A DNA stretch of 32,000 nt from an uncultured bacterium (GTDB lineage Bacteria; Auribacterota; JACPWU01): positions 7,961 through 39,960 of the forward strand of contig CAZXEQ010000009.1 in assembly GCA_964640155.1 (NCBI GenBank), read 5' to 3'. Position 1 is the stretch's first letter. Each line of letters starts with the position of its first letter. A model generated the notes under the pieces. That model did not search any database. It saw only the letters and a program-made list of their open reading frames with translations, and was not told the DNA's origin. Made by a program: the position numbers and the translations under genes. This document shows, one piece after another, positions 3,986 through 31,998 of this stretch.

Positions 3986-5000
3986 ATTTTTCTTCCCATT
4001 CTTCAAAATCAGGCGAGAAATATCTCACACGCGTTTTCTTATATTCAGTTGAGCTATAAAGTGCTTTATATTCGTGAAGACCTGTGTCTTGAGAAATGGC
4101 TTCCAAAATTTTTTCGCATTCTTCTTCTGTCTTCCCATGAACCATGGAGAAAAGTGGATATGGCCAATCAGGATAAGTGGGTCGGCGATAACAATGAGAA
4201 ACCGCTTTAAATTGCGCCATCTTTCTCCCAGCTTCATCAACATCTCCAGAAGGAACAGACCAAACACCCATCGCATTAGCCATAAAACCTGCTCGACGAT
4301 GATGAAGAATTGCAGCAAAGCGACGCATTTTACCTCTTCTGACTAAATCTTGAATAATGTGAAAAAGCATTTCTTGAGAAATTTCTAAATTCTGGGCAAG
4401 AGGCTTAAAAGGCTCTAGTGTCAGCTGTATATCTTCTTGAAGCTGACAGATGGCAGTAATATCGGAAGGAGAGAGAATTTCTTTGTTTATTTTTTCTTCA
4501 TTGTAAACCCCATCTCCACTCTTTGCCAAATTGACTTCTGAAGTCATATCCAAGGTAACACCAATTTTATAAAGCTTAAGTGTGGGCATCAAACGAATAG
4601 ATTCAGCCTTTGATAAAATCCCCATCAATTCTACAGTCTTTTCTAAACCCAAACGACTTTTAGGCGAAACGGCTACCGTAAACCAAAGATTAAACTCGTG
4701 ATTGCGACGATAATTATGAGAAACCCCTGGATGTTCATTAATCATTTTTGCTGTTTCAAGAATATGATCAGACGGTGCTTTTGCAGCAACCAAACTGGAT
4801 TGATAACCCATGCTGCGGGTATCAAAAATCGCACTGATTTGACGAATGATATTGGCCTTCTTCATGACCTGAACTCTCTGAAGAGCTTCTTCTTCAGAAA
4901 TTCCAAAAACATCTCCTAAAATTTTAAAAGGTCTTTCATGAAGAGGGAAATCTTCTTGAATTCTCGTCAATATTTGTTTATCGATTGCTGTTAATTCCAT
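3966..5000 (-). CDS. Fused AhbA/AhbB (NirD/L/G/H-like) siroheme decarboxylase family protein, two Lrp/AsnC-like modules
   Basis: It has two tandem HTH plus AsnC-type halves: LTAIDKQILTRIQEDFPL..RPF and SPSDITAICQLQEDIQLTLEPF. The HPGVSHNYRR and AVSHCYRR motifs are typical of the siroheme decarboxylase family. The ATG at 5000 has an AAGGG upstream. The track start at 5048 is TTG. Confidence 0.7.
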   Translation of the reverse strand: MELTAIDKQILTRIQEDFPLHERPFKILGDVFGISEEEALQRVQVMKKANIIRQISAIFDTRSMGYQSSLVAAKAPSDHILETAKMINEHPGVSHNYRRNHEFNLWFTVAVSPKSRLGLEKTVELMGILSKAESIRLMPTLKLYKIGVTLDMTSEVNLAKSGDGVYNEEKINKEILSPSDITAICQLQEDIQLTLEPFKPLAQNLEISQEMLFHIIQDLVRRGKMRRFAAILHHRRAGFMANAMGVWSVPSGDVDEAGRKMAQFKAVSHCYRRPTYPDWPYPLFSMVHGKTEEECEKILEAISQDTGLHEYKALYSSTEYKKTRVRYFSPDFEEWEEKYAAYAR

Positions 5001-15306: not shown

Positions 15307-15437
15307 ACTAAAGCCCTCTCCTGTTTCCCACGAAGCTGTAAGTATGCTTGGTTAATCATAAAAAATCAAATATTAAGAAAGAAAATTTACAGAGATAATC
15401 CCGTATACAAAAGTGTGTTCTTATTAGCTAAGAAACG

Positions 15438-15511
15438 GGTCCTGCCACTCGTCAGCCCCACCGTGCTCACTAAAAGTTGCGCGCGGCGGGGCTCCCCGTC
15501 GAGTGTCACCC
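15438..15511 (-). repeat. GC-rich structured element, copy A (74-nt core, minus orientation)
   Basis: It is the reverse complement of 20776-20849 with one mismatch (73/74). The core is about 69 percent GC by hand count, in an AT-rich context. It is flanked by CAAAAGTGTGT (15408-15418) and ACACACTTTTTTG (15525-15537), which are inverted. Confidence 0.85.
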
Positions 15512-15574
15512 GTATTTGTAAAGGACACACTTTTTTGCACAAGATCCAAGAAATTCTTCATTCAATTCCACAAG

Positions 15575-15735
15575 TGAAAATGGGGTGACCCGACTGGGGG
15601 TTCCCCATCGAGCGCCAGCAAGCGTCGCCTAAAACCTGAGAATCCTCATTAAATGCCCTGCCGACGCTGACCCCACAGGGGCTATAACTACATGTGCCGT
15701 CGATGGGGGTGAGGAGGGGCAGGACCCCATTTTCA
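15575..15735 (+). repeat. GC-rich structured element, copy B (longer family member, plus orientation)
   Basis: It starts GGGGTGACC and ends GGCAGGACCCC, like copy C. About 25 nt at each end are homologous to A/C (22/26 at the 3' end). It is closed by TGAAAATGGGGT / ACCCCATTTTCA (12 bp). Confidence 0.8.
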
Positions 15736-15871
15736 TGAATTTTGGCAATCTCTACCATTGATTCATCTTGCTTTATGGCTCATCTTAACGTATAGAGTAG
15801 GAGTTCAATGCTGTTTTGGGATATAATTTTGTCTCTTTTGAGTCTCTTAACCCAAATTTTATGAGTCAACT

Positions 15872-16852
15872 ATGCATACAGAAATACTGAATGAACTTGA
15901 AGGCTTTATTGAAGAACAACTTCATTTGCTAAAGTCCGTTAAAGACTCTTGGCAGCCCAGCGATATTTTGCCAGACATGAGTGATGAATGCTGGCACGAA
16001 AAAGTTGAAGAATTACGCACAAAAACATCGAATTTATCCGATGAACTTCTCGTCGTCCTTATTGGGAATACCGTTACAGAAGAGGCCTTACCCTCTTATC
16101 AAACCTGGTTAAATCGTTTTGAAGGCATGAGCGATAAAACAGGTGTCAGCTCTAATCCTTGGTCTCTTTGGACAAGGGCTTGGACTGCTGAAGAAAACCG
16201 TCATGGTGAACTTCTTAATAAATACTTATATCTTTCTGGGCGAGTTAACATGCATGCGGTTGAAATCACCACACAAAATCTCATTAGAAATGGCTTTGAT
16301 GTACGATCCGGAGACAGTTTCTATAAAGCCTTGGTTTATGCTGCGTTTCAAGAAAGAGGAACAAAAATTTCTCATCGTAATGTAGGTTTATTGGCTGAAA
16401 AATGTGGTGAAACAACCTTGAGCAAAATGTGCGTTTTGATTGCAGGAGATGAAGCTCGACATGAAGAAGCTTACAAGAGATTTTTCGCCAAAATACTCGA
16501 ACTAGATCCTTCTCGAGCTCTATGTGCTTTTGCAGACATGATGAAACAAAAAGTCATCATGCCAGCCCGTCTCATGTCCGATGAAACAGATCGAGACTTA
16601 TTTAATCAATTCTCTGTCGTTGCACAGAAAATTGGTGTTTATACCATTCATGACTATGTTGAAATCATTGACCACTTGATTAATCTCTGGGGCATTCCAA
16701 CCCTTTCTACTTCTTCCCCAGAAAGTGCGCAAGCACAAGAATATCTTTGCAATTTGCCAGGACGGTATACAGGGAAAATTGAACGACTGGAAGAATCTTT
16801 GGCTAAACAACCCAGCAAATCTTTTCGATGGATATTTGATCGTTGCGCTTAA
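15872..16852 (+). CDS. Soluble acyl-ACP desaturase (stearoyl-ACP delta-9 desaturase family, di-iron)
   Basis: It has the WTAEENRHG and GDEARHEEAY di-iron motifs at the spacing typical of the plant/actinobacterial soluble desaturase family. Confidence 0.9.
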   Translation: MHTEILNELEGFIEEQLHLLKSVKDSWQPSDILPDMSDECWHEKVEELRTKTSNLSDELLVVLIGNTVTEEALPSYQTWLNRFEGMSDKTGVSSNPWSLWTRAWTAEENRHGELLNKYLYLSGRVNMHAVEITTQNLIRNGFDVRSGDSFYKALVYAAFQERGTKISHRNVGLLAEKCGETTLSKMCVLIAGDEARHEEAYKRFFAKILELDPSRALCAFADMMKQKVIMPARLMSDETDRDLFNQFSVVAQKIGVYTIHDYVEIIDHLINLWGIPTLSTSSPESAQAQEYLCNLPGRYTGKIERLEESLAKQPSKSFRWIFDRCA

Positions 16853-16876
16853 ACAATTAAATTTAAAAAATCAAAG

Positions 16877-18910
16877 CTAAGATGTTTTAATATTTATATT
16901 TGATTTTGTTTTTCTCCATCCTTCTTTCCATTTTCTAGGATCCAAACCTAAATCTCGACCCGTCAAACCCATTAAAGCCAAATGAGCATTTTCTCGCACA
17001 GAAGAATCAGGATCTTTTAAAACATCGATCAAAGATGGAACCGCCTTTTCATTTTGAAAAATCCCCAAAAGCAGTACGCAGGTGTATCTTACTTCTGAGT
17101 CAGGATGCTTCAAAAGTTTAAGTATCACATCAAAAGTGGCCTGATCTTTTTCAGTATTAATTTGTCCTAAATATTGCACTATTTTTTTTGCATCACTTTT
17201 AGGATTTTGTAATGTTGCTAAAAGTAGTGGGAGTCGTGCTAACTCACCAAAATTTTCCAAAGCATCTTTAGCGCTCTGCTGAACTTCTAACACAGGATCG
17301 TTCAAGAGTTCTATAAGGCTTGAAATACTGATTGGATCACGAACGGACCCCAAAGAAACGGCTGCATGGCTTCTCACCTTAGGAAATGGATCTTTTAAAG
17401 CTTCTACCAAAGCGCTCACACTGCCTTCTGCTCTTAAAAGACCTAAAGATAAAGCTGCATTCGCACGAACCTCTGCATCTTCATCTTTTAAATGCATCAT
17501 CACTTGAGGAGCAACAGAGGGATCCTGTAAAAGCCCTAAAGCTAACACCACATGTTTTCTGACTTCACTATCTTCATCTTGAATATGCGAAATCAATATT
17601 TCTTTAGCCCGTGTATCCTTTAAAATTCCAAGAAGAATTGCTGCGTGACGTCGGACCAAAGGATGAGCATCATTTAAAGCTTTTAAAGTTAATTCAAAAC
17701 TCTTTTTTTCAAGTTTTCCTTTTAATTCCCGATCACGCAATTTTTGATTTAACGTAATCACCGCTTGAGCCCTGATCAGCGGATCTTTACTCTGCAAAAC
17801 CCGAAAAATAGGATCTTCGGATAATCTCTCCAATAAAATTTCTCTTTCTTGTTGGACTCCTGTTAATTTGACCTGAGCTTCATGCAAAATCTTTTTATAT
17901 TCCTTTTGAGCACGTTGATGCTGAGCGACCAAATAAAGAGTCCAAACAAGACCCATTACAAGCATAATCGCTAAAGCCCAGAGCACCGCCTGATAACGAC
18001 ATAACTTTCGATACAACCTGATCGTCAAGGGCGTGGGGCGTGCCCAAATGGGATCCCCCATTTGAAAACATTTTAAATCTTCTACTAATTTTTGAGCAGA
18101 GGGATATCGATTTTTGGGATTTTTTTCAATGGCCTTGAGAATGATCACTTCTAAATCCTTTGGAATCTTAGAATTAATCAAATGAGGGGCTCGAGGTTCT
18201 TCTTCCAAAACCTTTTTCAATAAAGCCAAATGATTTGCAGCCTGAAAAGGAAGCTCTTTTGTAAACATTTCATACATTAAAATCCCCAGAGAATAAACAT
18301 CAACCAAATTGGTTGATGGCTCGTCGGGGTCCGATCTAGCCTGTTCCGGCGACATATACGCTGGGGTTCCCATGATTGTTCCATCAAGAGTCATAAGCGT
18401 TGCATTTTCTATTTTGGCCAAACCAAAATCCATGATCACAGGGCGACCTGTGGGATCCAGCATGATATTTGAAGCCTTAATATCACGATGAATGGTTCCA
18501 TGTTCATGAGCAAAAGCAAGCGCTTCCGCTAATTTCTCAGAAATTTCAACTGCTTTTGAAAAAGGTAATCCTCCGGCTGAAAAAACTTGTTCCAAAGTTT
18601 GTCCTTCAATATATTCCATGGCAATAAAAGGACCTGTCTGAGTTTCTCCATAGTCATAGACAAGAGCAATATTGGGATGATTCATTCGAGCCGCCGCAGC
18701 AGCTTCATTGCGGAATCTTTTGACAAAGGTATGATCTTGCGCCAAATGCGAGGGAAGCACTTTTAGAGCAACTTTACGTTCCAAGCGAGGATGGTAGGCT
18801 TCGTAAACAAGCCCCATTGCACCCTGGCCAATTTGACGAATGATTTTATAATTTTCGATTTGTTCAATAGAAGGATTTTTATTTTCTTCAGGAGGAGAAG
18901 AATCTGTCAT
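16877..18910 (-). CDS. Ser/Thr protein kinase with a TM segment and C-terminal HEAT (PBS-lyase-type) repeats
   Basis: It has the GQGAMGLVY P-loop, VALKVL, HRDIKASNIML, DFGLAK and GTPAYMSPEQ. A hydrophobic segment (AVLWALAIMLVMGLVWTLYLV) follows. There are at least 8 repeats of the D..VR..AA.ALG type. Confidence 0.9.
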   Translation of the reverse strand: MTDSSPPEENKNPSIEQIENYKIIRQIGQGAMGLVYEAYHPRLERKVALKVLPSHLAQDHTFVKRFRNEAAAAARMNHPNIALVYDYGETQTGPFIAMEYIEGQTLEQVFSAGGLPFSKAVEISEKLAEALAFAHEHGTIHRDIKASNIMLDPTGRPVIMDFGLAKIENATLMTLDGTIMGTPAYMSPEQARSDPDEPSTNLVDVYSLGILMYEMFTKELPFQAANHLALLKKVLEEEPRAPHLINSKIPKDLEVIILKAIEKNPKNRYPSAQKLVEDLKCFQMGDPIWARPTPLTIRLYRKLCRYQAVLWALAIMLVMGLVWTLYLVAQHQRAQKEYKKILHEAQVKLTGVQQEREILLERLSEDPIFRVLQSKDPLIRAQAVITLNQKLRDRELKGKLEKKSFELTLKALNDAHPLVRRHAAILLGILKDTRAKEILISHIQDEDSEVRKHVVLALGLLQDPSVAPQVMMHLKDEDAEVRANAALSLGLLRAEGSVSALVEALKDPFPKVRSHAAVSLGSVRDPISISSLIELLNDPVLEVQQSAKDALENFGELARLPLLLATLQNPKSDAKKIVQYLGQINTEKDQATFDVILKLLKHPDSEVRYTCVLLLGIFQNEKAVPSLIDVLKDPDSSVRENAHLALMGLTGRDLGLDPRKWKEGWRKTKSNINIKTS

Positions 18911-18973
18911 TTCTTCATTCTTTCCAATGTCATTCGTTTTAACTCCAACTTCATCATAACGATGAACTGAATT

Positions 18974-20662
18974 CTATTCTACTTTTATCAATCCCAAAGT
19001 AATGTCATCTGCTTGGGCTTCATTCTGGGCGTGTTCAGTAATTCTATCAAGAATTTTTTCCATAATGATATGTGTTTTTTGATTCCCGATCTGAGTAATG
19101 ATTTCTTTCAAGGCTTCAAGGAATTTTTCTTTTCCATAAGATTGCTGTTTGGAATCTTGGGCTTCCTCCACACCATCTGTATATAAAATAACTTGATCCC
19201 CTTTTTTTAGGGACAAAGTATATTCTTCCGGCATTTCATCATCCGTCCATTTTGAAAAACCCAAAGCAATGCCCTTTGGAGAAAACTCATGCAATTGAAC
19301 GTCTGGACCTCGATATACAATCAAAGGTAAATGTCCTGCCCTAGAAAAAGTAAGGGTATTCTGTTTTACATCGAGAAAAGCCAAAATAGCGCTGATAAAC
19401 ATATCTTGTTTCATATCTGGAACCAAAAGATTGTTCACTTCTTTTAAGAGGCCTGCCGTACTCGTCGCACCCAAGGCTCTGGACTTCAATGTCGAACGAA
19501 ACATCGCCATCACCAAAGCACCTGGAACCCCCTTACCACTTACATCTGCAATCACCAAAGCTAATTTTTCAGGGCTTACCCAAAACCAATCATAATAATC
19601 TCCGCCTACTTCTTGGGCTGGCAAACTTCTAAAAGAGAAATCAAAACCTTCTATTTTTGGAAAAGTACGGGGTAATAAAATCTGCTGAATTTCACGAGCG
19701 ATCTGTAATTCATGTTTGATGCGCTCCTGATCACGAATCTCGCGGTAAAGCCTAGCATTTTCTAATGCAATCGCCGCTTGACTTGCAATCGCTGTTAAAA
19801 GCTTTAGATCGTCTTCTTCAAAATGACTGATTTTAATCAAACTATCACAATAAATAAGTCCTAAAATCTGATTTTTAATAGCAATGGGGACACACATGGC
19901 AGATTTAATCCCATACGCATAAAAACTCTCTGCATTCTTAAAACGATCATCCAAACCTGTATGGGCACAAATCACACCCACGTGTTCTTTCAAAACCGTT
20001 TCAACAATGCTACGACTGATTGCAATGGGAGAATATCCTTTTTTTTGCTCTGAACGTTTTACAATTCGAGGGACTAATTCTTGTGTTTTTTCATCTCGGA
20101 ATAAAATCACGTAGCGATCCGCATGAATCACCTCCATCACCATATCTACAATTTTTACAATTAAATTTTCTTCATTTAAAATCGAATTAAAAACATTTCC
20201 TGATTTATAAAGGATAGAAAGATTTTTTGCCGTTTTCTTAAATTGATCCAATTTCAAACTGCGTCCGTCTATATCTAAAAATGTAGAATGCTTACAATCT
20301 AAAGAGCTCGTGACACGTGTTTGAGGAGCTTCTTCTAACACAATGGAAACTTCTTCTTTAGATAAGGATTCTAAAGAGGAATTTTCCGATACTATTTTCA
20401 AACGTGTGTCTCCTACAACAATTTCATCCCCCTCTTTAATCACACACTGCGTTACCAGCTTCCCATTGACATAGGTACCATTTGAACTATCCAGATCTTG
20501 AAGAAAATATTGATCTTTTTGTTTTTGAATACGCACATGAACCCGAGAAACTCTGGGGTCTTGTAAAGGCAATTGATTGGTAGGATCTCTGCCAATTGAA
20601 AGAGTTTCTCCCAGAGGAAAAACATAATCCTTCTTAAAACCTTGCATGACTAAAACATTCAT
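18974..20662 (-). CDS. FHA-GAF-PP2C (SpoIIE-type) protein phosphatase
   Basis: It has an N-terminal FHA domain (GRDPTNQL..VSRVHVRI..LQDLDSSNGTYVNG), a central GAF-like region, and C-terminal GGDYYDW / ADVSGKGVPGAL / DGVEEA PP2C motifs. The start could instead be the ATG at 20647. Confidence 0.9.
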   Translation of the reverse strand: MNVLVMQGFKKDYVFPLGETLSIGRDPTNQLPLQDPRVSRVHVRIQKQKDQYFLQDLDSSNGTYVNGKLVTQCVIKEGDEIVVGDTRLKIVSENSSLESLSKEEVSIVLEEAPQTRVTSSLDCKHSTFLDIDGRSLKLDQFKKTAKNLSILYKSGNVFNSILNEENLIVKIVDMVMEVIHADRYVILFRDEKTQELVPRIVKRSEQKKGYSPIAISRSIVETVLKEHVGVICAHTGLDDRFKNAESFYAYGIKSAMCVPIAIKNQILGLIYCDSLIKISHFEEDDLKLLTAIASQAAIALENARLYREIRDQERIKHELQIAREIQQILLPRTFPKIEGFDFSFRSLPAQEVGGDYYDWFWVSPEKLALVIADVSGKGVPGALVMAMFRSTLKSRALGATSTAGLLKEVNNLLVPDMKQDMFISAILAFLDVKQNTLTFSRAGHLPLIVYRGPDVQLHEFSPKGIALGFSKWTDDEMPEEYTLSLKKGDQVILYTDGVEEAQDSKQQSYGKEKFLEALKEIITQIGNQKTHIIMEKILDRITEHAQNEAQADDITLGLIKVE

Positions 20663-20666
20663 AGGG

Positions 20667-20696
20667 GAAACTTTCGATATAAAGTTTCTACGAAAC
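20667..20696. promoter_or_regulatory. GAAAC/GTTTC half-site cluster (operator-like palindromes) just upstream of the phosphatase gene
   Basis: GAAACTTT-cgatat-AAAGTTTC (20667-20688) is a perfect 8-bp inverted repeat. It overlaps GTTTC-tac-GAAAC (20684-20696). Confidence 0.35.
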
Positions 20697-20775
20697 CATT
20701 ATAGCGTTTTTAATTCTACTTTACTATCAAAATGGGGATTGTGGATCCTGTTAAGAGTGTGTTTTTTATATATGT

Positions 20776-20849
20776 GGGTGACACTCGACGGGGAGCCCCG
20801 CCGCGCGCAACTTTTAGTGAGCACGGTCGGGCTGACGAGTGGCAGGACC
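20776..20849 (+). repeat. GC-rich structured element, copy C (74-nt core, plus orientation)
   Basis: GGGTGACACTCGACGGGGAGCCCCGCCGCGCGCAACTTTTAGTGAGCACGGTCGGGCTGACGAGTGGCAGGACC. It is flanked by perfect inverted AAGAGTGTGTTTTTT (20753-20767) and AAAAAAACACACTCTT (20861-20876). Confidence 0.85.
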
Positions 20850-21028
20850 TACTACTTTTCAAAAAAACACACTCTTATCTCCAGCACATCAACAATAAAA
20901 AATAAAAATCAGATATGTTTTTAGATTTCAAATCACTGTTTTTAATAGTCAATTTCAAAACATTATCTTACAATTTCTCTAACATCGTGTTACGCACTTC
21001 TCACAACGCATCACACAGAGCGAATTTT

Positions 21029-28197: not shown

Positions 28198-28260
28198 CGT
28201 AATGCGTGATGCGTTCTGAGTCTTGCGTAAAAACACACAAGCGACGCATCCCGCACAACG
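28198..28260. repeat. GCGT-rich imperfect hairpin just downstream of pmbA
   Basis: CGTAATGCGTGATGCGT (28198-28214) pairs with ACGCATCCCGCACAACG (28244-28260) at 14 of 17 positions. No U-run follows. Confidence 0.55.
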
Positions 28261-29490: not shown

Positions 29491-31998
29491 TCACGGATTG
29501 GGATCGGAGGATAATGCAGGATCTGCATCAATCGTATTATTGGTAGAGTTAACTAAAGTTCCTCCTGGAGGATTGGCGCCCCCCGTCCAATAGTTATTTT
29601 CTGCATCGATGGTGAAACCTGCAGCAGCACTGGTATCACTCATATCAAATTCACCATTGCTATCTGAATCATTTCCCGTCAGAGAATTATTTCCTGGACT
29701 AGAAAGTCCTCCACCTCCAAAGTCAATCGTGTAAGTTGGAACACTGGCACTCAGTGAAAACAAAACACCATCCCCAACATTGTTTCGAATGATGTTTCCT
29801 TCTCCATATAAAATTAAAGCATCTCCAGCCCCTGTCCCTGCAGTGATGGTATAAGAAAACCCATCTTCTCCATTATTAGTTACAGTATTGGTGATGGCAC
29901 TGACGGTAACATCATCAGGTGCTGTTGTGGTCAAAACAATTCCCGAAAGAGAATTAGCACCTGTAACATTGTCGGTTAAAACGGTACTGACACTTCCACT
30001 GCTGCCAGAAACCAAGTTGTTAATCAGAAGCCCATAACCAGTATCGGCATCATTACCTGTATTCCCTGTCACCGTAATATTGATATTATCATTGAGAGAT
30101 GCATTACCGATATATATGTTATCCCCCGAGTTACTATTAGCAGTATTGGTACTTACAACTCCCACAATGGCACCAGAACCACTGCCAGAAACCGAGTTGC
30201 TGATCAAAAGGCCAAAACCACCCGTACTACCATTTGCTATGTTTCCAGTCACCGTGACATTGATATCATCATTCAAAGATGTATTAACCATAAAGATATT
30301 ATTATCTGCGTTACCCGTAGCCGTATTGGTACTTGTAAAAACCTCAATAGCTCCAGAACCACTCCCCAGAACTGTGTTGCCCATCCCAATCCCCATATAA
30401 CTACCACTATTATTCGCTATATTCCCTGTCACGGTGACATTGATATCATCATTGAGAGATGTATTTATGATAGATATATTCATATTTGCGTTTCCAATAG
30501 CAGTATTAGTACTTATAAAATTTGAAATTGACCCTGCACCACTTCCAGAAACTGTGTTCGTAATCTCAATCCCCAAATTAGACAGACTATTGCTTGCCGT
30601 ATTTCCAGTCACGGTGACATTGATATCACCATTAAGAGATCGATTACGGATAGATAGATTAGTGCCCCCATTATTGCTAGCCCTATTATCACTCATAACT
30701 CCCACAATTGATCCAGAACCACTCCCTGAGACTGTATTAGTGATGGAAAGTCCGAAACCACCTGCATTATTATTATTTAGAAGGTTCCCTGTAGCAGTGA
30801 TAGTGATATTGTCATTAAGCGAATTAAGAAAAACAAAGAAATTACTCGTCCCATTGAGTTCCGATATATTATTACTAATATCAGCATTAATTGCGCCCGA
30901 ACTTGATCCTGAAACTGCCCCTGACACATAAGAACCAAAGCTTGTAGTACTAGAACTCGTTTTATTTCCGGTCACTGTCACATTGAGATCCGCATTCAGA
31001 GAGGTTAAAGTCATAGAAAAGTTACTGGTTACATTGTTACTAAAATTATTCCTATTGATGAGAGCATTCACTTCTCCAGAACCAGTTCCACCCACAACTG
31101 CAGAAATAGCAGCACCATCTGCTAACCCAGTGAGGCCTCTATTGTTATCCATGGTAAGTGTAATATCCGCATCTTGAGAAGTGAGCGTCACAGATAAATT
31201 AGTTAAAGTATTACTTTCCATACGATTGTCACTGATAGTAGCATTGATTGCTCCTATGGTAGTTGCAGCAACTTCGCTATTGATACGAATCCCATATCCT
31301 CCTGAAGTATGGGACTGGTTATCTGTCACATTTAATTCAATATTTCCTCCTGTCGTATCAACATCCAACACCACATTTGAAGAAGTATTGGATTCAAGAA
31401 CATTATCAATAACATTTACAGTAGTGGGTGCACGCGAACCAGAGTTAACCCATATACCACGATTAGCATTGTTTGAAACTGTGTTTCCACGGATGGTTGC
31501 CGTAAAGGAATCATAATCATTTGTACTAATACTAATTCCATCAAATGCATTTCCTGTAGCGGTGTTATCTAAAATAGTTGTGTTAAATGAAGAACTCAGT
31601 GTCCCTAAACTAATAATTCCTATCCCTTCAGCTACATCATTCTGGCTGATGGTATTATCGGAAATTGTTGAAGTAAAATCTGTAACACTATCTGCAGCTA
31701 AAAAAACTCCTATAGAATTAGCATGAATATAATTCTCACAACTGATTTCTAAATTGGTTTTGTTCTCAGCGTAAATACCTATGCGCTTGACGTTAAAAAG
31801 TTGTCCAGCTACAGAACGAAATTGATTAGCACCCCCCATATCCGTATTAATCACTTCCATACCCCAGATCTTGGTATTATCTGCCATGGTAATAGAGGGA
31901 CCATTACTTCTTCCATCTACAATAGGCCTAATCCCACTCTCTATACCATAGTTCACACATCCACTTCCCCATAGAATCACATTCTCTTTGAGGGTCAC
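29491..31998 (-). CDS. Large right-handed beta-helix (PbH1-type) repeat protein, C-terminal 835 aa (N-terminus outside the window)
   Basis: The ORF stays open to the window edge. It has repeated N.T.TGN / N(T/S)VSGSGSGAI units, is rich in Asn/Thr/Ser/Gly, and has a terminal ENNYWTG motif common at the end of PbH1 arrays. Confidence 0.8.
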   Translation of the reverse strand: MTLKENVILWGSGCVNYGIESGIRPIVDGRSNGPSITMADNTKIWGMEVINTDMGGANQFRSVAGQLFNVKRIGIYAENKTNLEISCENYIHANSIGVFLAADSVTDFTSTISDNTISQNDVAEGIGIISLGTLSSSFNTTILDNTATGNAFDGISISTNDYDSFTATIRGNTVSNNANRGIWVNSGSRAPTTVNVIDNVLESNTSSNVVLDVDTTGGNIELNVTDNQSHTSGGYGIRINSEVAATTIGAINATISDNRMESNTLTNLSVTLTSQDADITLTMDNNRGLTGLADGAAISAVVGGTGSGEVNALINRNNFSNNVTSNFSMTLTSLNADLNVTVTGNKTSSSTTSFGSYVSGAVSGSSSGAINADISNNISELNGTSNFFVFLNSLNDNITITATGNLLNNNNAGGFGLSITNTVSGSGSGSIVGVMSDNRASNNGGTNLSIRNRSLNGDINVTVTGNTASNSLSNLGIEITNTVSGSGAGSISNFISTNTAIGNANMNISIINTSLNDDINVTVTGNIANNSGSYMGIGMGNTVLGSGSGAIEVFTSTNTATGNADNNIFMVNTSLNDDINVTVTGNIANGSTGGFGLLISNSVSGSGSGAIVGVVSTNTANSNSGDNIYIGNASLNDNINITVTGNTGNDADTGYGLLINNLVSGSSGSVSTVLTDNVTGANSLSGIVLTTTAPDDVTVSAITNTVTNNGEDGFSYTITAGTGAGDALILYGEGNIIRNNVGDGVLFSLSASVPTYTIDFGGGGLSSPGNNSLTGNDSDSNGEFDMSDTSAAAGFTIDAENNYWTGGANPPGGTLVNSTNNTIDADPALSSDPNP
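30060..31340 (-). repeat. In-frame tandem repeats of about 180 bp (60 aa) inside the beta-helix gene, about 7 units
   Basis: The motif C(C/A)(T/G)GTCAC(C/G)GTGACATTGATATCA.. recurs near 30063, 30245, 30425 and 30605. Degenerate copies occur near 30785, 30968, 31150 and 31325. Confidence 0.8.

Follow-up and report, generated by a model that had tools for sequence, protein, structure and literature searches.

The paired GC-rich elements A and A' and a third copy, B, are most probably members of one family of selfish DNA repeats, non-autonomous and hairpin-forming, that resemble the Rickettsia palindromic elements (RPEs) in behaviour and are not cis-regulatory RNAs. All three lie in the window, the whole 32-kb stretch of DNA that was analysed. 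The family is dispersed at unrelated loci across several bacterial phyla and is present or absent among close relatives. Literature searches found no description of it, and this family of GC-rich hairpin repeats is apparently undescribed so far.

Copies in the window and the family core

A and A' are the pair that the initial annotation singled out as near-identical inverted elements, one in each of two divergent promoter regions. Direct comparison bears this out exactly: 15438-15511 and 20776-20849 are reverse complements along all 74 nt apart from a single mismatch at 15459 (C vs G), a match that rules out chance within 32 kb. Both copies lie between divergent genes, A between UbiD (-) and acyl-ACP desaturase (+), and A' between an FHA-GAF-PP2C phosphatase (-) and a glycogen debranching enzyme (+). 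The core, put at about 69 percent GC in an AT-rich window, is 68.9% GC compared with 38.3% for the window as a whole. The self-complementarity that had been pointed out is equally real, since folding of the 91-nt A and A' segments gives -43 kcal/mol, and their z values relative to dinucleotide shuffles are -5.2 (+ strand) and -4.0 (- strand). As had also been noted, the one difference adds or removes a base pair: C15459:G15488 in A becomes G.G in A'.

The inverted repeat delimited by a repeat finder spans 124 nt (15411-15534 and 20753-20876) at 85% identity. By arithmetic from this figure and the direct comparison, the AT-rich arms are only about two-thirds identical, whereas the core is identical at 73 of 74 positions, so that the flanks are, as described, only loosely similar. 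As DNA, the whole copy A unit forms one long hairpin with an outer stem of ~14 bp (z = -5.7), and the outer stems of A and A' differ in a compensatory way (AAAAGTGTGT/ACACACTTTT vs AAGAGTGTGT/ACACACTCTT). A short-read contig terminates within copy A.

The A-type copies in the window are recent duplicates of one 124-nt unit. The diverged arms, the nearly unchanged core and the empty orthologous spacer of a relative, described below, agree with the earlier proposal of recent copying, by mobility or gene conversion, together with constraint on the core. As 124-nt inverted repeats, A and A' could mediate inversion of the intervening 5.2 kb. They were also considered as the ends of a composite transposon carrying this segment; the idea was rejected because this UbiD/desaturase junction also occurs, free of the elements, in the sister MAG.

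Copy B, overlooked in the initial annotation, sits 70 nt from copy A. It differs from A in subfamily, being of the CGACGGC...GGCGCTCG type with an insertion of ~88 nt in the apical domain, and it has the ends GGGTCCTGCC...GTCACCC in common with A. The window thus holds three copies from two subfamilies, none of them intragenic.

Table 1. Positions of the three copies and of the structural parts of the copy A core, numbered along the window.
Feature	Position	Strand	Details
Copy A, whole palindromic unit	15409..15534	+	GC-rich core and AT-rich outer arms (AAAAGTGTGTTCTT... / ...AAGGACACACTTTT)
Copy A, family core	15432..15517	+	Covariance model R1: 78.9 bits, E = 2e-17
P1, 5' strand (CGGGT)	15436..15440	+	Pairs with 15508-15512 (ACCCG); alignment A3 columns 5-9 with 96-100
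3-nt bulge (CCT)	15441..15443	+	Invariant in 43/43 aligned members, an ascertainment-biased figure because the bulge fell within the search pattern
P2, 5' strand (GCCACTCG)	15444..15451	+	Pairs with 15500-15507 (CGAGTGTC)
P3 hairpin	15455..15492	+	GCCCCACCGTGC (15455-15466), apical loop (15467-15480), GCGCGCGGCGGGGC (15481-15492, read 5' to 3')
Unpaired 3' C-run (TCCCCGT)	15493..15499	+	Faces the 3-nt TCA at 15452-15454
Copy B, family member	15580..15730	-	Model R1: 56.6 bits, E = 6e-12
Copy A', whole palindromic unit, inverted orientation	20753..20876	-	Inverted-repeat arm; long DNA hairpin, z = -5.0
Copy A', family core	20770..20855	-	Model R1: 69.7 bits, E = 4e-15

A scan of metagenomes with the 5' motif yielded ~45 low-GC contigs with a full element, and altogether 47 distinct members, all of them hairpin-forming, were recovered from metagenome contigs and the window. 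The 3' half is conserved in those ~45 contigs though absent from the 5' search pattern; the invariance of the 5' half is partly an artefact of that pattern (ascertainment bias). The family consensus, GGGTCCTGCC-N-CTC-N-TCA-NCCCC...GGGG-N-CCCC(C)A-N-TCG-N-GTCACCC, is strand-asymmetric, and the opposite strand of the copy A core scores merely 11.7 bits with model R1. The core measures 72-146 nt across the family, and the elements end in (N)GGGTCC...GTCACCC(N).

Helices P1, P2 and P3 (Table 1) have strong backing from covariation. The outermost pair of P1 covaries (GC 20, CG 14, UA 7), N1:N1' and N2:N2' in P2 have 22 and 14 double changes, and both-sided changes are found at 9 of the 12 pairs of P3, the helix in which the A/A' difference at 15459 falls. 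The CTC/TCG positions of P2 form conserved T.C and C.T mismatches in 38 of 43 members and are Watson-Crick in A, A' and the A-type copy at locus L003. Columns 82-84 of the C-run, a region outside the search pattern, are C in 42 of 43 members; the 3' C-run matches the 5' C-run in length (4 with 4, 5 with 5), and a local GGGGG-N-CCCCC palindrome is kept in the core. In an unfitted MAFFT alignment, 87% of cells are paired. The covariation score was 0.377, compared with 0.105 in shuffles (0/500 as high) and at most 0.10 in slid controls, and RNAalifold independently gave the same three helices, but P2 and P3 in part only.

Is this pairing a property of RNA or of DNA? Counts of G.U and A.C pairs across the family are equal, at 32 each, and there is thus no RNA-strand signal, which favours DNA over RNA. 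Compensatory changes maintain base pairing even within coding sequence: the orthologous GatA inserts L055 and L049 differ by a C:G to T:A replacement that alters the peptide on both sides.

Locations in genes and genomes

Nearly half of the family (22/47) is intragenic: these members lie within long ORFs, invariably in frame and free of stops, and they occur in both orientations and in four different reading frames. Host ORFs checked with Pfam encode LeuRS (two loci), TopA, Mfd, GatA (three loci), MnmA, a glycosyltransferase and an aminotransferase-IV/anthranilate-synthase-I-N-domain protein. The predicted translations are Gly/Pro/Ser/His/Arg-rich segments such as GPAPPHPHSAQS... and GVTRLG...GGEEGQDP, and in the three proteins compared (GatA, MnmA and TopA) the insert falls where solved homologues fail to align. 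An AlphaFold model of GatA P0121 (17-sequence alignment) had a mean pLDDT of 47.5 and, being uninformative for that reason, was not used. A concatenated 78-aa peptide query from in-frame copies had no match in an index of 5.8 billion proteins. Other copies are squeezed between closely spaced, unrelated genes. Copies are retained only at harmless positions, in spacers or in frame and stop-free in genes; since they are found both between genes and in frame inside essential ones, they behave as selfish DNA and not as regulatory RNAs of promoter regions.

By the names given in the sequence sources, the hosts are Patescibacteria (Parcubacteria, Gottesmanbacteria), Candidatus Auribacterota, the lineage of the window, and Candidatus Eisenbacteria. 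The initial annotation had allowed that the core might lack conservation elsewhere; it is in fact conserved across several phyla. Occupancy varies even at short evolutionary distance. In the sister MAG GCA_041906865.1, with a desaturase 97% identical, the UbiD/desaturase spacer is also present but lacks both A and B, and an A-type copy is found at another locus, L003. A covariance-model search of its spacer found no significant relic, and a resemblance seen by eye at L002 4345-4425 is at most tentative. All three A-type copies in Auribacterota lie between divergent genes. Among GatA orthologues (~75% identity), the same loop contains the element in sense or antisense orientation, in degenerate form or not at all, and both eroded-looking and degenerate copies exist in the family.

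Copies are sparse beyond the window: 272 kb of member loci contained a single additional copy, and 68 kb of Parcubacteria contigs contained none apart from that in GatA. A strict A-type pattern had a single match in 185,579 species genomes, in the sister MAG. In viral contigs, the 5' motif had 0 matches and the 3' motif 3, all of them rejected by the covariance model; plasmid and phage collections gave no blastn match.

Alternative explanations and a possible mode of movement

Could the family be an ordinary TIR-type MITE, that is, an internally deleted insertion sequence that is cut and pasted by the transposase of its parent and leaves target-site duplications? The element is small, palindromic, multicopy and presence-polymorphic, and MITEs are known to fuse in frame with host ORFs (PMC10969869). 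The explanation is nevertheless improbable, since the interior core is conserved and the outermost ends vary by locus, which is the reverse of what a TIR-MITE would show. No consistent direct repeat was found beside the copies. One subfamily has TC on either side, which might be a 2-bp duplication or a part of the element. Neither a target-site duplication nor a clean empty site could be defined, and transposition is accordingly putative. Searches of the 32-kb window found no transposase, recombinase, RAYT, RT, TnpB or autonomous parent element, in line with the initial annotation, and the fetched loci likewise contained no parent IS. It had also been suggested that the core might match the termini of a known IS or MITE; no known family was found, and the elements behave as non-autonomous mobile repeats do.

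A second alternative, and a decidedly improbable one, is that the core is a domesticated or host-beneficial nucleic-acid module, such as a site recognised by a conserved host machine, and is retained by selection for the host and not for its own spread. Conservation of the core across phyla, including its unpaired positions and the GGGGG-N-CCCCC palindrome, would fit such a role, as would the pairing kept within coding regions and the low copy density of most host contigs. Conserved unpaired nucleotides and cross-phylum sequence conservation are unusual for junk repeats, and the core could have a function. On the other hand, the same sites are empty in close relatives, the locations are haphazard, with both orientations found in genes, and there are degenerate, apparently eroded copies.

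The initial annotation leaned towards a novel structured RNA tied to divergent promoters, either cis-regulatory or a small RNA gene. The stable fold (z = -4 to -5), the covarying helices with their conserved unpaired nucleotides and the divergent-gene setting of all three Auribacterota A-type copies are consistent with this, but it is highly improbable in view of the family as a whole: the neighbouring genes are unrelated between loci, about half of the members lie within ORFs in both orientations, the orthologous spacer of the 97%-identical relative is without the elements, and G.U pairs are in no excess over A.C. Promoter and terminator scans gave nothing exceeding shuffled expectation, and no site like an intrinsic terminator (GC-rich hairpin, short loop and T-run) was found in either spacer. 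The initial annotation could match the sequence to no known RNA family, and Rfam agrees, as no match in the window reached the gathering threshold (the highest score near A and B was 20 bits vs a 93.5-bit threshold) and seven canonical member loci gave nothing at E <= 1. Relaxed thresholds on the window spacer and on these seven loci gave chance-level matches only. A tRNA/tmRNA scan of the window found none. Readings as hammerhead, HDV-like, K-turn, BHB-intron or attC elements were rejected by eye, the needed motifs being absent or on the wrong strand. A and A' have no demonstrated regulatory role.

An RNA-level intervening sequence (mini-intron, RNase-excised hairpin or translational bypass element), removed or skipped and thus untranslated, has next to no probability: GC-rich hairpins in AT-rich coding sequence do recall the bypass elements and GC clusters of yeast mitochondria, but all 22 intragenic copies are in frame and stop-free, compared with ~18% by chance (one third in frame, times the mere 53% of the elements' frames that are open), a preservation that would be needless if the element were removed, and some copies are antisense to the host gene.

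How would selfish, hairpin-forming repeats of this kind move? Each copy is an imperfect palindrome with a conserved asymmetric GC-rich core, a variable apical domain and locus-specific outer arms, the core comprising helices P1-P2-P3, the CCT bulge, pyrimidine-pyrimidine mismatches and the unpaired C-run. Movement would probably be as a folded single-stranded DNA hairpin or a cruciform, and the asymmetric core would be the feature that a structure-specific enzyme recognises, a nuclease or recombinase putatively of HUH/Y1 or tyrosine-recombinase type and encoded at another place in the genome. No target-site duplication would result from the action of such an enzyme. Once a copy is inserted, gene conversion or quasi-palindrome templated repair would probably preserve its stems and lengthen them into the flanks, and a copy may also flip in place.

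A bolder reading, which is rather unlikely, makes the family a new cross-phylum class of hairpin mobile element, the core of which would either serve a dedicated structure-specific recombinase or nuclease as its substrate or have catalytic activity of its own. Such elements would colonise essential genes of the ultra-small Patescibacteria and pass by horizontal transfer to co-resident bacteria, for instance Auribacterota. The substrate features proposed for the core are the CCT bulge, the fixed pyrimidine mismatches and the C-run/G-run/C-run.

Rickettsia provides the main known case of palindromic repeats that settle in frame in housekeeping genes. The presence of one conserved core in LeuRS, topoisomerase I, Mfd, GatA and MnmA of candidate-phyla-radiation bacteria, as well as in unrelated phyla from the same habitats, would be noteworthy if true. 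Some odd protein insertions in these tiny genomes would then be selfish DNA, and the core would serve both as a sequence marker for tracing horizontal exchange of Patescibacteria with the bacteria found alongside them and as a well-defined hairpin substrate with which to seek the mobilising enzyme. In practical terms, such repeats break short-read assemblies and inflate predicted proteins, and inverted pairs such as A and A' are potential inversion sites.

Relation to known repeats

Integron attC sites resemble the family in being imperfect palindromes, with a conserved basal part that carries unpaired or extrahelical strand-marking bases and a variable terminal structure of widely differing length (72-146 nt here). 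However, there are no RYYYAAC/GTTRRRY boxes in the present elements, which are dispersed singly, including inside genes, and the window is without an integrase or cassette array. The GC clusters of yeast mitochondria are GC-rich palindromic insertions in AT-rich genomes, found in spacers and occasionally in frame (VAR1), and are strain-optional. The present family likewise consists of GC-rich palindromes in AT-rich genomes, both in spacers and in frame, but the yeast clusters are organellar, much shorter (~30-50 bp) and unrelated in sequence. Bacterial MITEs (Correia, ERIC, Nezha and others) are similarly small, non-autonomous, dispersed, strain-polymorphic and capable of in-frame fusion; they conserve their terminal inverted repeats and duplicate the target site, whereas here the interior is conserved, the ends vary and no duplication is detectable.

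REPINs, as Bertels and Rainey reportedly proposed in 2011, would travel in the form of single-stranded DNA hairpins, mobilised in trans by an enzyme present in single copy and leaving the target unduplicated. Both they and the present elements are hairpin-forming repeats of ~70-110 nt in which structure matters. REPs, on the other hand, are extragenic units of 20-40 nt that form near-symmetric doublets in REPINs; the present elements have two conserved halves that lack such symmetry, the core is 72-146 nt long, half of the copies are intragenic and the window has no RAYT gene. REP tags are GTAG or CGTC (PMC3733652), and the family has no conserved tag of this sort, CGTC arising only when N2 = G.

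RPEs are short, palindromic, non-autonomous repeats found in spacers and, unusually often, in frame in unrelated housekeeping genes, the products of which thereby gain additional peptide segments; their mobilising mechanism is not known (PMC10969869), a point in common with the present family. The present hosts are Patescibacteria, Auribacterota and Eisenbacteria, not Rickettsia, and the elements are GC-rich in AT-rich genomes. Each RPE encodes one conserved peptide, whereas here four frames and both orientations are used, and the core is asymmetric and conserved across phyla. Because the hosts belong to other phyla, and the two are likened by description and not by sequence, the family is not filed as RPE. 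The likeness is one of behaviour, both being short, palindromic and non-autonomous, at home in spacers and unusually often in frame in unrelated housekeeping genes.

Copies in the window and turnover between close relatives

The two inverted GC-rich elements, A and A', are indeed nearly identical, as the initial annotation had reported from the sequence: the 74-nt core of A equals the reverse complement of that of A' except for a single mismatch at 15459. The core GC content is 68.9% (about 69% had been claimed), compared to 38.3% for the window, and each copy does lie between divergently oriented genes, A between UbiD(-) and an acyl-ACP desaturase(+), and A' between an FHA-GAF-PP2C phosphatase(-) and a glycogen debranching enzyme(+). 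A repeat finder puts the full length of the inverted repeat at 124 nt (85%). The added outer sequence is AT-rich and far less conserved than the core; nonetheless, an outer stem is formed in both copies, with a compensatory difference between them (AAAAGTGTGT/ACACACTTTT vs. AAGAGTGTGT/ACACACTCTT). Both copies fold far better than shuffled controls. A third copy, B, had been overlooked; this GC-rich island, 70 nt from A, has A's ends (GGGTCCTGCC...GTCACCC) and a longer interior, and shares 22 of the first 26 nt with A. With the family's covariance model (R1), the window yields these three copies and no others. Of the three, A and A' are recent duplicates of a single 124-nt family unit, and B is an older copy or one from a different subfamily.

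Coordinates of the repeat copies and of other features in the window and comparison loci
Feature	Locus	Coordinates	Strand
Copy A, 74-nt core	window	15438-15511	+
Copy A, 124-nt repeat	window	15411-15534	+
Copy B	window	15580-15730	-
Copy A', 74-nt core	window	20776-20849	-
Copy A', 124-nt repeat	window	20753-20876	-
Debranching-enzyme ORF call (692 aa), start	window	20915	+
Promoter-like site inside this ORF	window	20946-20974	
28-nt inverted repeat	window	20990-21017 / 28203-28230	
ATG of the debranching-enzyme gene (probable start)	window	21030	+
MqnA/MqnD-like gene	window	28311	
Beta-helix ORF (835 aa)	window	29491-31998	-
Four tandem 180-nt repeats	window	30059-30774	
A-type copy, sister MAG	L003	570-642	
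Stretch resembling an eroded member, sister MAG	L002 (JAYRIK010000112)	4345-4425	
19-bp hairpin, sister MAG	L002 (JAYRIK010000112)	4429-4473	
Weaker copy (52 bits)	L060	1304-1402	+
In-frame LeuRS copy	L060	1862-1940	
GyrB with intein (1090 aa)	L127	15815-19087	
GyrB without intein (652 aa)	L125	17613-19571	

The window ORFs scanned against Pfam encode the futalosine/menaquinone pathway, ThiC, arginine catabolism, a kinase/phosphatase pair, TldD/PmbA and similar functions; among them is no mobilising enzyme, whether transposase, recombinase, reverse transcriptase or HUH protein, in agreement with what had been noted. Nor does the window contain tRNA or tmRNA genes, or any Rfam family at the gathering threshold (relaxed thresholds on the spacer gave chance-level matches only), which upholds the earlier failure to recognise an RNA family. 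No promoter-like or terminator-like sites accompany the elements, nothing indicates that A, A' or B regulate the flanking genes, and their location in divergent spacers probably reflects tolerance of insertions there. A and A', being inverted and separated by 5.2 kb, could invert the desaturase-kinase-phosphatase segment; the sister MAG described below has the same left junction, so there is no sign of such an inversion.

Other features of the window were noted in passing. The debranching-enzyme ORF call probably begins too early, given the promoter-like site inside it and the ATG that follows; with this ATG as the true start, A' would lie ~180 nt, not 65 nt, from the gene. The 28-nt inverted repeat (82% complementary; TTACGCACTTCTCACAACGCATCACACA), with one arm just upstream of this probable start and the other upstream of the MqnA/MqnD-like gene, could be a coincidence or a shared operator. 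The tandem repeats, 68-72% identical to the reference copy, lie within the beta-helix ORF and look like a repeat protein rather than a non-coding array.

How stable are these insertions? Desaturase homologues carry the label Candidatus Omnitrophica/Omnitrophota, and the closest (97% identity) is found in MAG GCA_041906865.1, another contig of which is titled Candidatus Auribacterota bacterium. This sister MAG has the same UbiD/desaturase arrangement, with a spacer of 323 nt vs. 565 nt that lacks A and B, and spacer homology stops, then resumes, around a variable block with other palindromes. A strict A-type pattern, applied to 185,579 species genomes, matched only this same MAG at a different locus (L003), also between divergent ORFs and with four substitutions relative to A. 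Thus, elements have been gained and lost over a short timescale, at non-orthologous sites, which accords with the recent copying first proposed.

At the place of A and B, the sister MAG has a hairpin of 19 perfect base pairs around a 5-nt loop (TCCCGCTACGAGGTAATCC ACGCA GGATTACCTCGTAGCGGGA), seemingly a palindromic element of another kind within this variable spacer. Another stretch there resembles, by eye, an eroded family member (ACTCACACCCATAGGTACT...TGCGTTCATGGGTTC...CCGACTGACG, compared with member L076); the covariance model finds no family member in it. A Logan contig (SRR8893623_178714) with an identical UbiD ends 152 nt upstream of UbiD, within copy A, consistent with an assembly broken by the repeat.

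A dispersed family with a conserved fold

Because A and B agree so closely at their starts, metagenome contigs were scanned for the shared 5' motif GGTCCTGCCNCTCNTCANCCC. Among the 120 matches listed, about 45 contigs of 36-50% GC hold a complete element; those of high GC are fortuitous and lie in coding DNA. Adding the window copies and L003 brings the family to at least 47 distinct members (cores of 72-146 nt, mean GC 67%), so the core is conserved elsewhere, and the possibility that it exists only as the copies first seen is removed. Invariance of the 5' half is inflated, since this half was the search key; the conserved 3' half, GGGG-N-CCCC(C)A-N-TCG-N-GTCACCC, lay outside the search pattern.

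In a MAFFT alignment of the 43 shorter members, not fitted to structure, the core forms three helices: P1 (GGGT/ACCC plus flanking pairs), P2 (GCC-N1-CTC-N2 with N2'-TCG-N1'-GTC) and P3 (a C-run with a G-run, plus a variable stem). Standard pairs occupy 87% of cells. Covariation, a check suggested at the outset, scores 0.377, whereas column shuffles give 0.105, with none of 500 attaining the observed value, and slid partners give no more than 0.10; double changes number 22 for N1:N1', 14 for N2:N2' and 5-25 for most P3 pairs. RNAalifold independently gives the same three helices, P2 and P3 only in part. Also conserved are an unpaired CCT bulge, fixed C.T, T.C and C.T oppositions in P2, and a TCA facing the N-CCCC(C)-A loop, while the length of the 3' C-run follows that of the 5' C-run. 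In the Auribacterota copies (A, A' and L003), the two P2 mismatches have become Watson-Crick pairs. The apical domain distinguishes three subfamilies, A and A' being of G-type and B of the CGACGKC...GGCGCTC type with an ~88-nt apical insertion.

The element is strand-asymmetric, A scoring 78.9 bits with R1 and its complement 11.7 bits. G.U and A.C oppositions are equally frequent across family pairs (32 each), a balance that gives no hint of selection on one RNA strand and is compatible with base pairing in DNA. Read on the complement, the conserved pyrimidine mismatches are G.A/A.G oppositions, and the reverse strand folds slightly better in 30 of the 47 listed members.

Source labels assign host contigs to Patescibacteria/Parcubacteria (GatA-bearing contig), Patescibacteria (L074), Candidatus Gottesmanbacteria (L010, L086), Candidatus Eisenbacteria (L107; HYK08190.1) and Candidatus Auribacterota (the window lineage, L003). 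One host contig encodes NuoL/NuoM, which are atypical of Patescibacteria. No members were found in IMG/VR viral contigs, PLSDB plasmids or GenBank phages. Copy density is low outside the window, and in many hosts the family may by now have become largely inactive. Spread across phyla is plausible, because Patescibacteria and Omnitrophota are reported to exchange genes in groundwater (PMC12455944).

Copies inside genes

Nearly half of the listed members (22/47) are intragenic, with an ORF that continues without interruption through the element and for 40 or more codons beyond it in either direction. Fourteen are in sense and nine in antisense orientation, exceeding 22 because one locus, L035, is open on both strands. 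Ten host ORFs scanned against Pfam encode leucyl-tRNA synthetase (two loci), GatA (three loci), topoisomerase I, Mfd/TRCF, MnmA (the sense-strand ORF of L035), a GT4 glycosyltransferase, and a protein combining an aminotransferase class IV domain with an anthranilate synthase I N-terminal domain; in several of these ORFs (GatA, TopA, LeuRS), Pfam matches flank the insert on both sides. Four reading frames are used, sense copies encoding GPAPPHPH... or GSCPSSPH... and antisense copies GVTRLG...GGEEGQDP or AGDA...GEERQDP. Stop codons are absent from only 53% of the elements' six frames, and we estimate that ~18% of random insertions would be both in frame and open; that all 22 are so argues for purifying selection for read-through. 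Judging from the DNA, such read-through implies that the copies would be translated, not excised. In alignments to solved structures the extra residues fall where homologues do not align: ~24 residues between residues 136 and 149 of 2hma in MnmA, a variable region in topoisomerase I, and the helical linker before the L-x-G-I-P motif of 3h0l in GatA. Other copies occupy spacers, often very tight, between unrelated genes (LysRS-type/SerRS, two transketolase halves, NuoL/NuoM, DUF192/TsaD), and in 20 loci scanned no member of the family overlaps an rRNA or tRNA gene. One LeuRS ORF (L060) has an in-frame copy and a second, weaker copy overlapping its 3' end, the sole two-copy locus besides the window.

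One loop varies among GatA proteins of 74-79% identity: it holds a sense element (P0121-P0124), an antisense element (P0125, P0136), a degenerate one (P0130), a larger insert (P0140) or none (P0126, P0127, P0134, P0141, P0189). Syntenic contigs confirm this in the DNA (L127 sense, L124 antisense, L125 empty). The native linker is gone from both filled alleles, replaced by the element-encoded peptide. The antisense copies would reflect either a flip in place or an independent insertion. The sense copies at L055 and L049, which are orthologous, are distinguished by a compensatory change in P2, from C:G to T:A, that alters the peptide on both strands (P to S and G to S); it is the pairing, rather than the peptide, that is conserved. 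Flanks often lengthen the hairpin with locus-specific sequence (14 bp from GatA codons in L055, GGTATTCCGTAAAG / CTTTACGGAATACC; 16 bp in L076; 8 bp in L121 and B). Templated correction of quasi-palindromes, an established mutational mechanism, would explain these extended stems.

Four more short inserts occur in the alignment of Parcubacteria GatA (columns 267-283, 310-320, 385-405 and 524-550), present in some close relatives and not in others (e.g., AVPSEASGEGG, INKLKAPIGKANRGS, SEGTSLRSPPSDLARDARKSSLLAPASPE), which hints that these genes carry further in-frame insertion elements. A GyrB intein (PF14890) is present in the Parcubacteria contig L127 and absent from its syntenic relative L125.

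Likely mode of spread and relation to known systems

What kind of element is this? The family sequence is dispersed, structure-constrained, strand-asymmetric, presence-polymorphic and tolerated only where harmless. No flanking duplication is evident at the copies, and the TC that flanks one subfamily at either end is ambiguous. Our best guess is that the element moved as a single-stranded DNA hairpin, its conserved asymmetric core being recognised by a structure-specific enzyme acting in trans, in a mode resembling REP/REPIN-RAYT, IS200/IS605 or attC-integrase systems. Copies would then be kept up through gene conversion and templated repair.

The family fits no Rfam family, and no description of it was found in the part of the journal literature searched. 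MITEs with terminal inverted repeats have conserved ends, whereas this family conserves its interior; it departs from REPs in size, tag and their extragenic location, and it lacks the core boxes and context of attC sites. Its closest counterparts are the Rickettsia palindromic elements in behaviour and REPINs in likely mechanism, and with attC sites it shares a layout of conserved base and variable tip.
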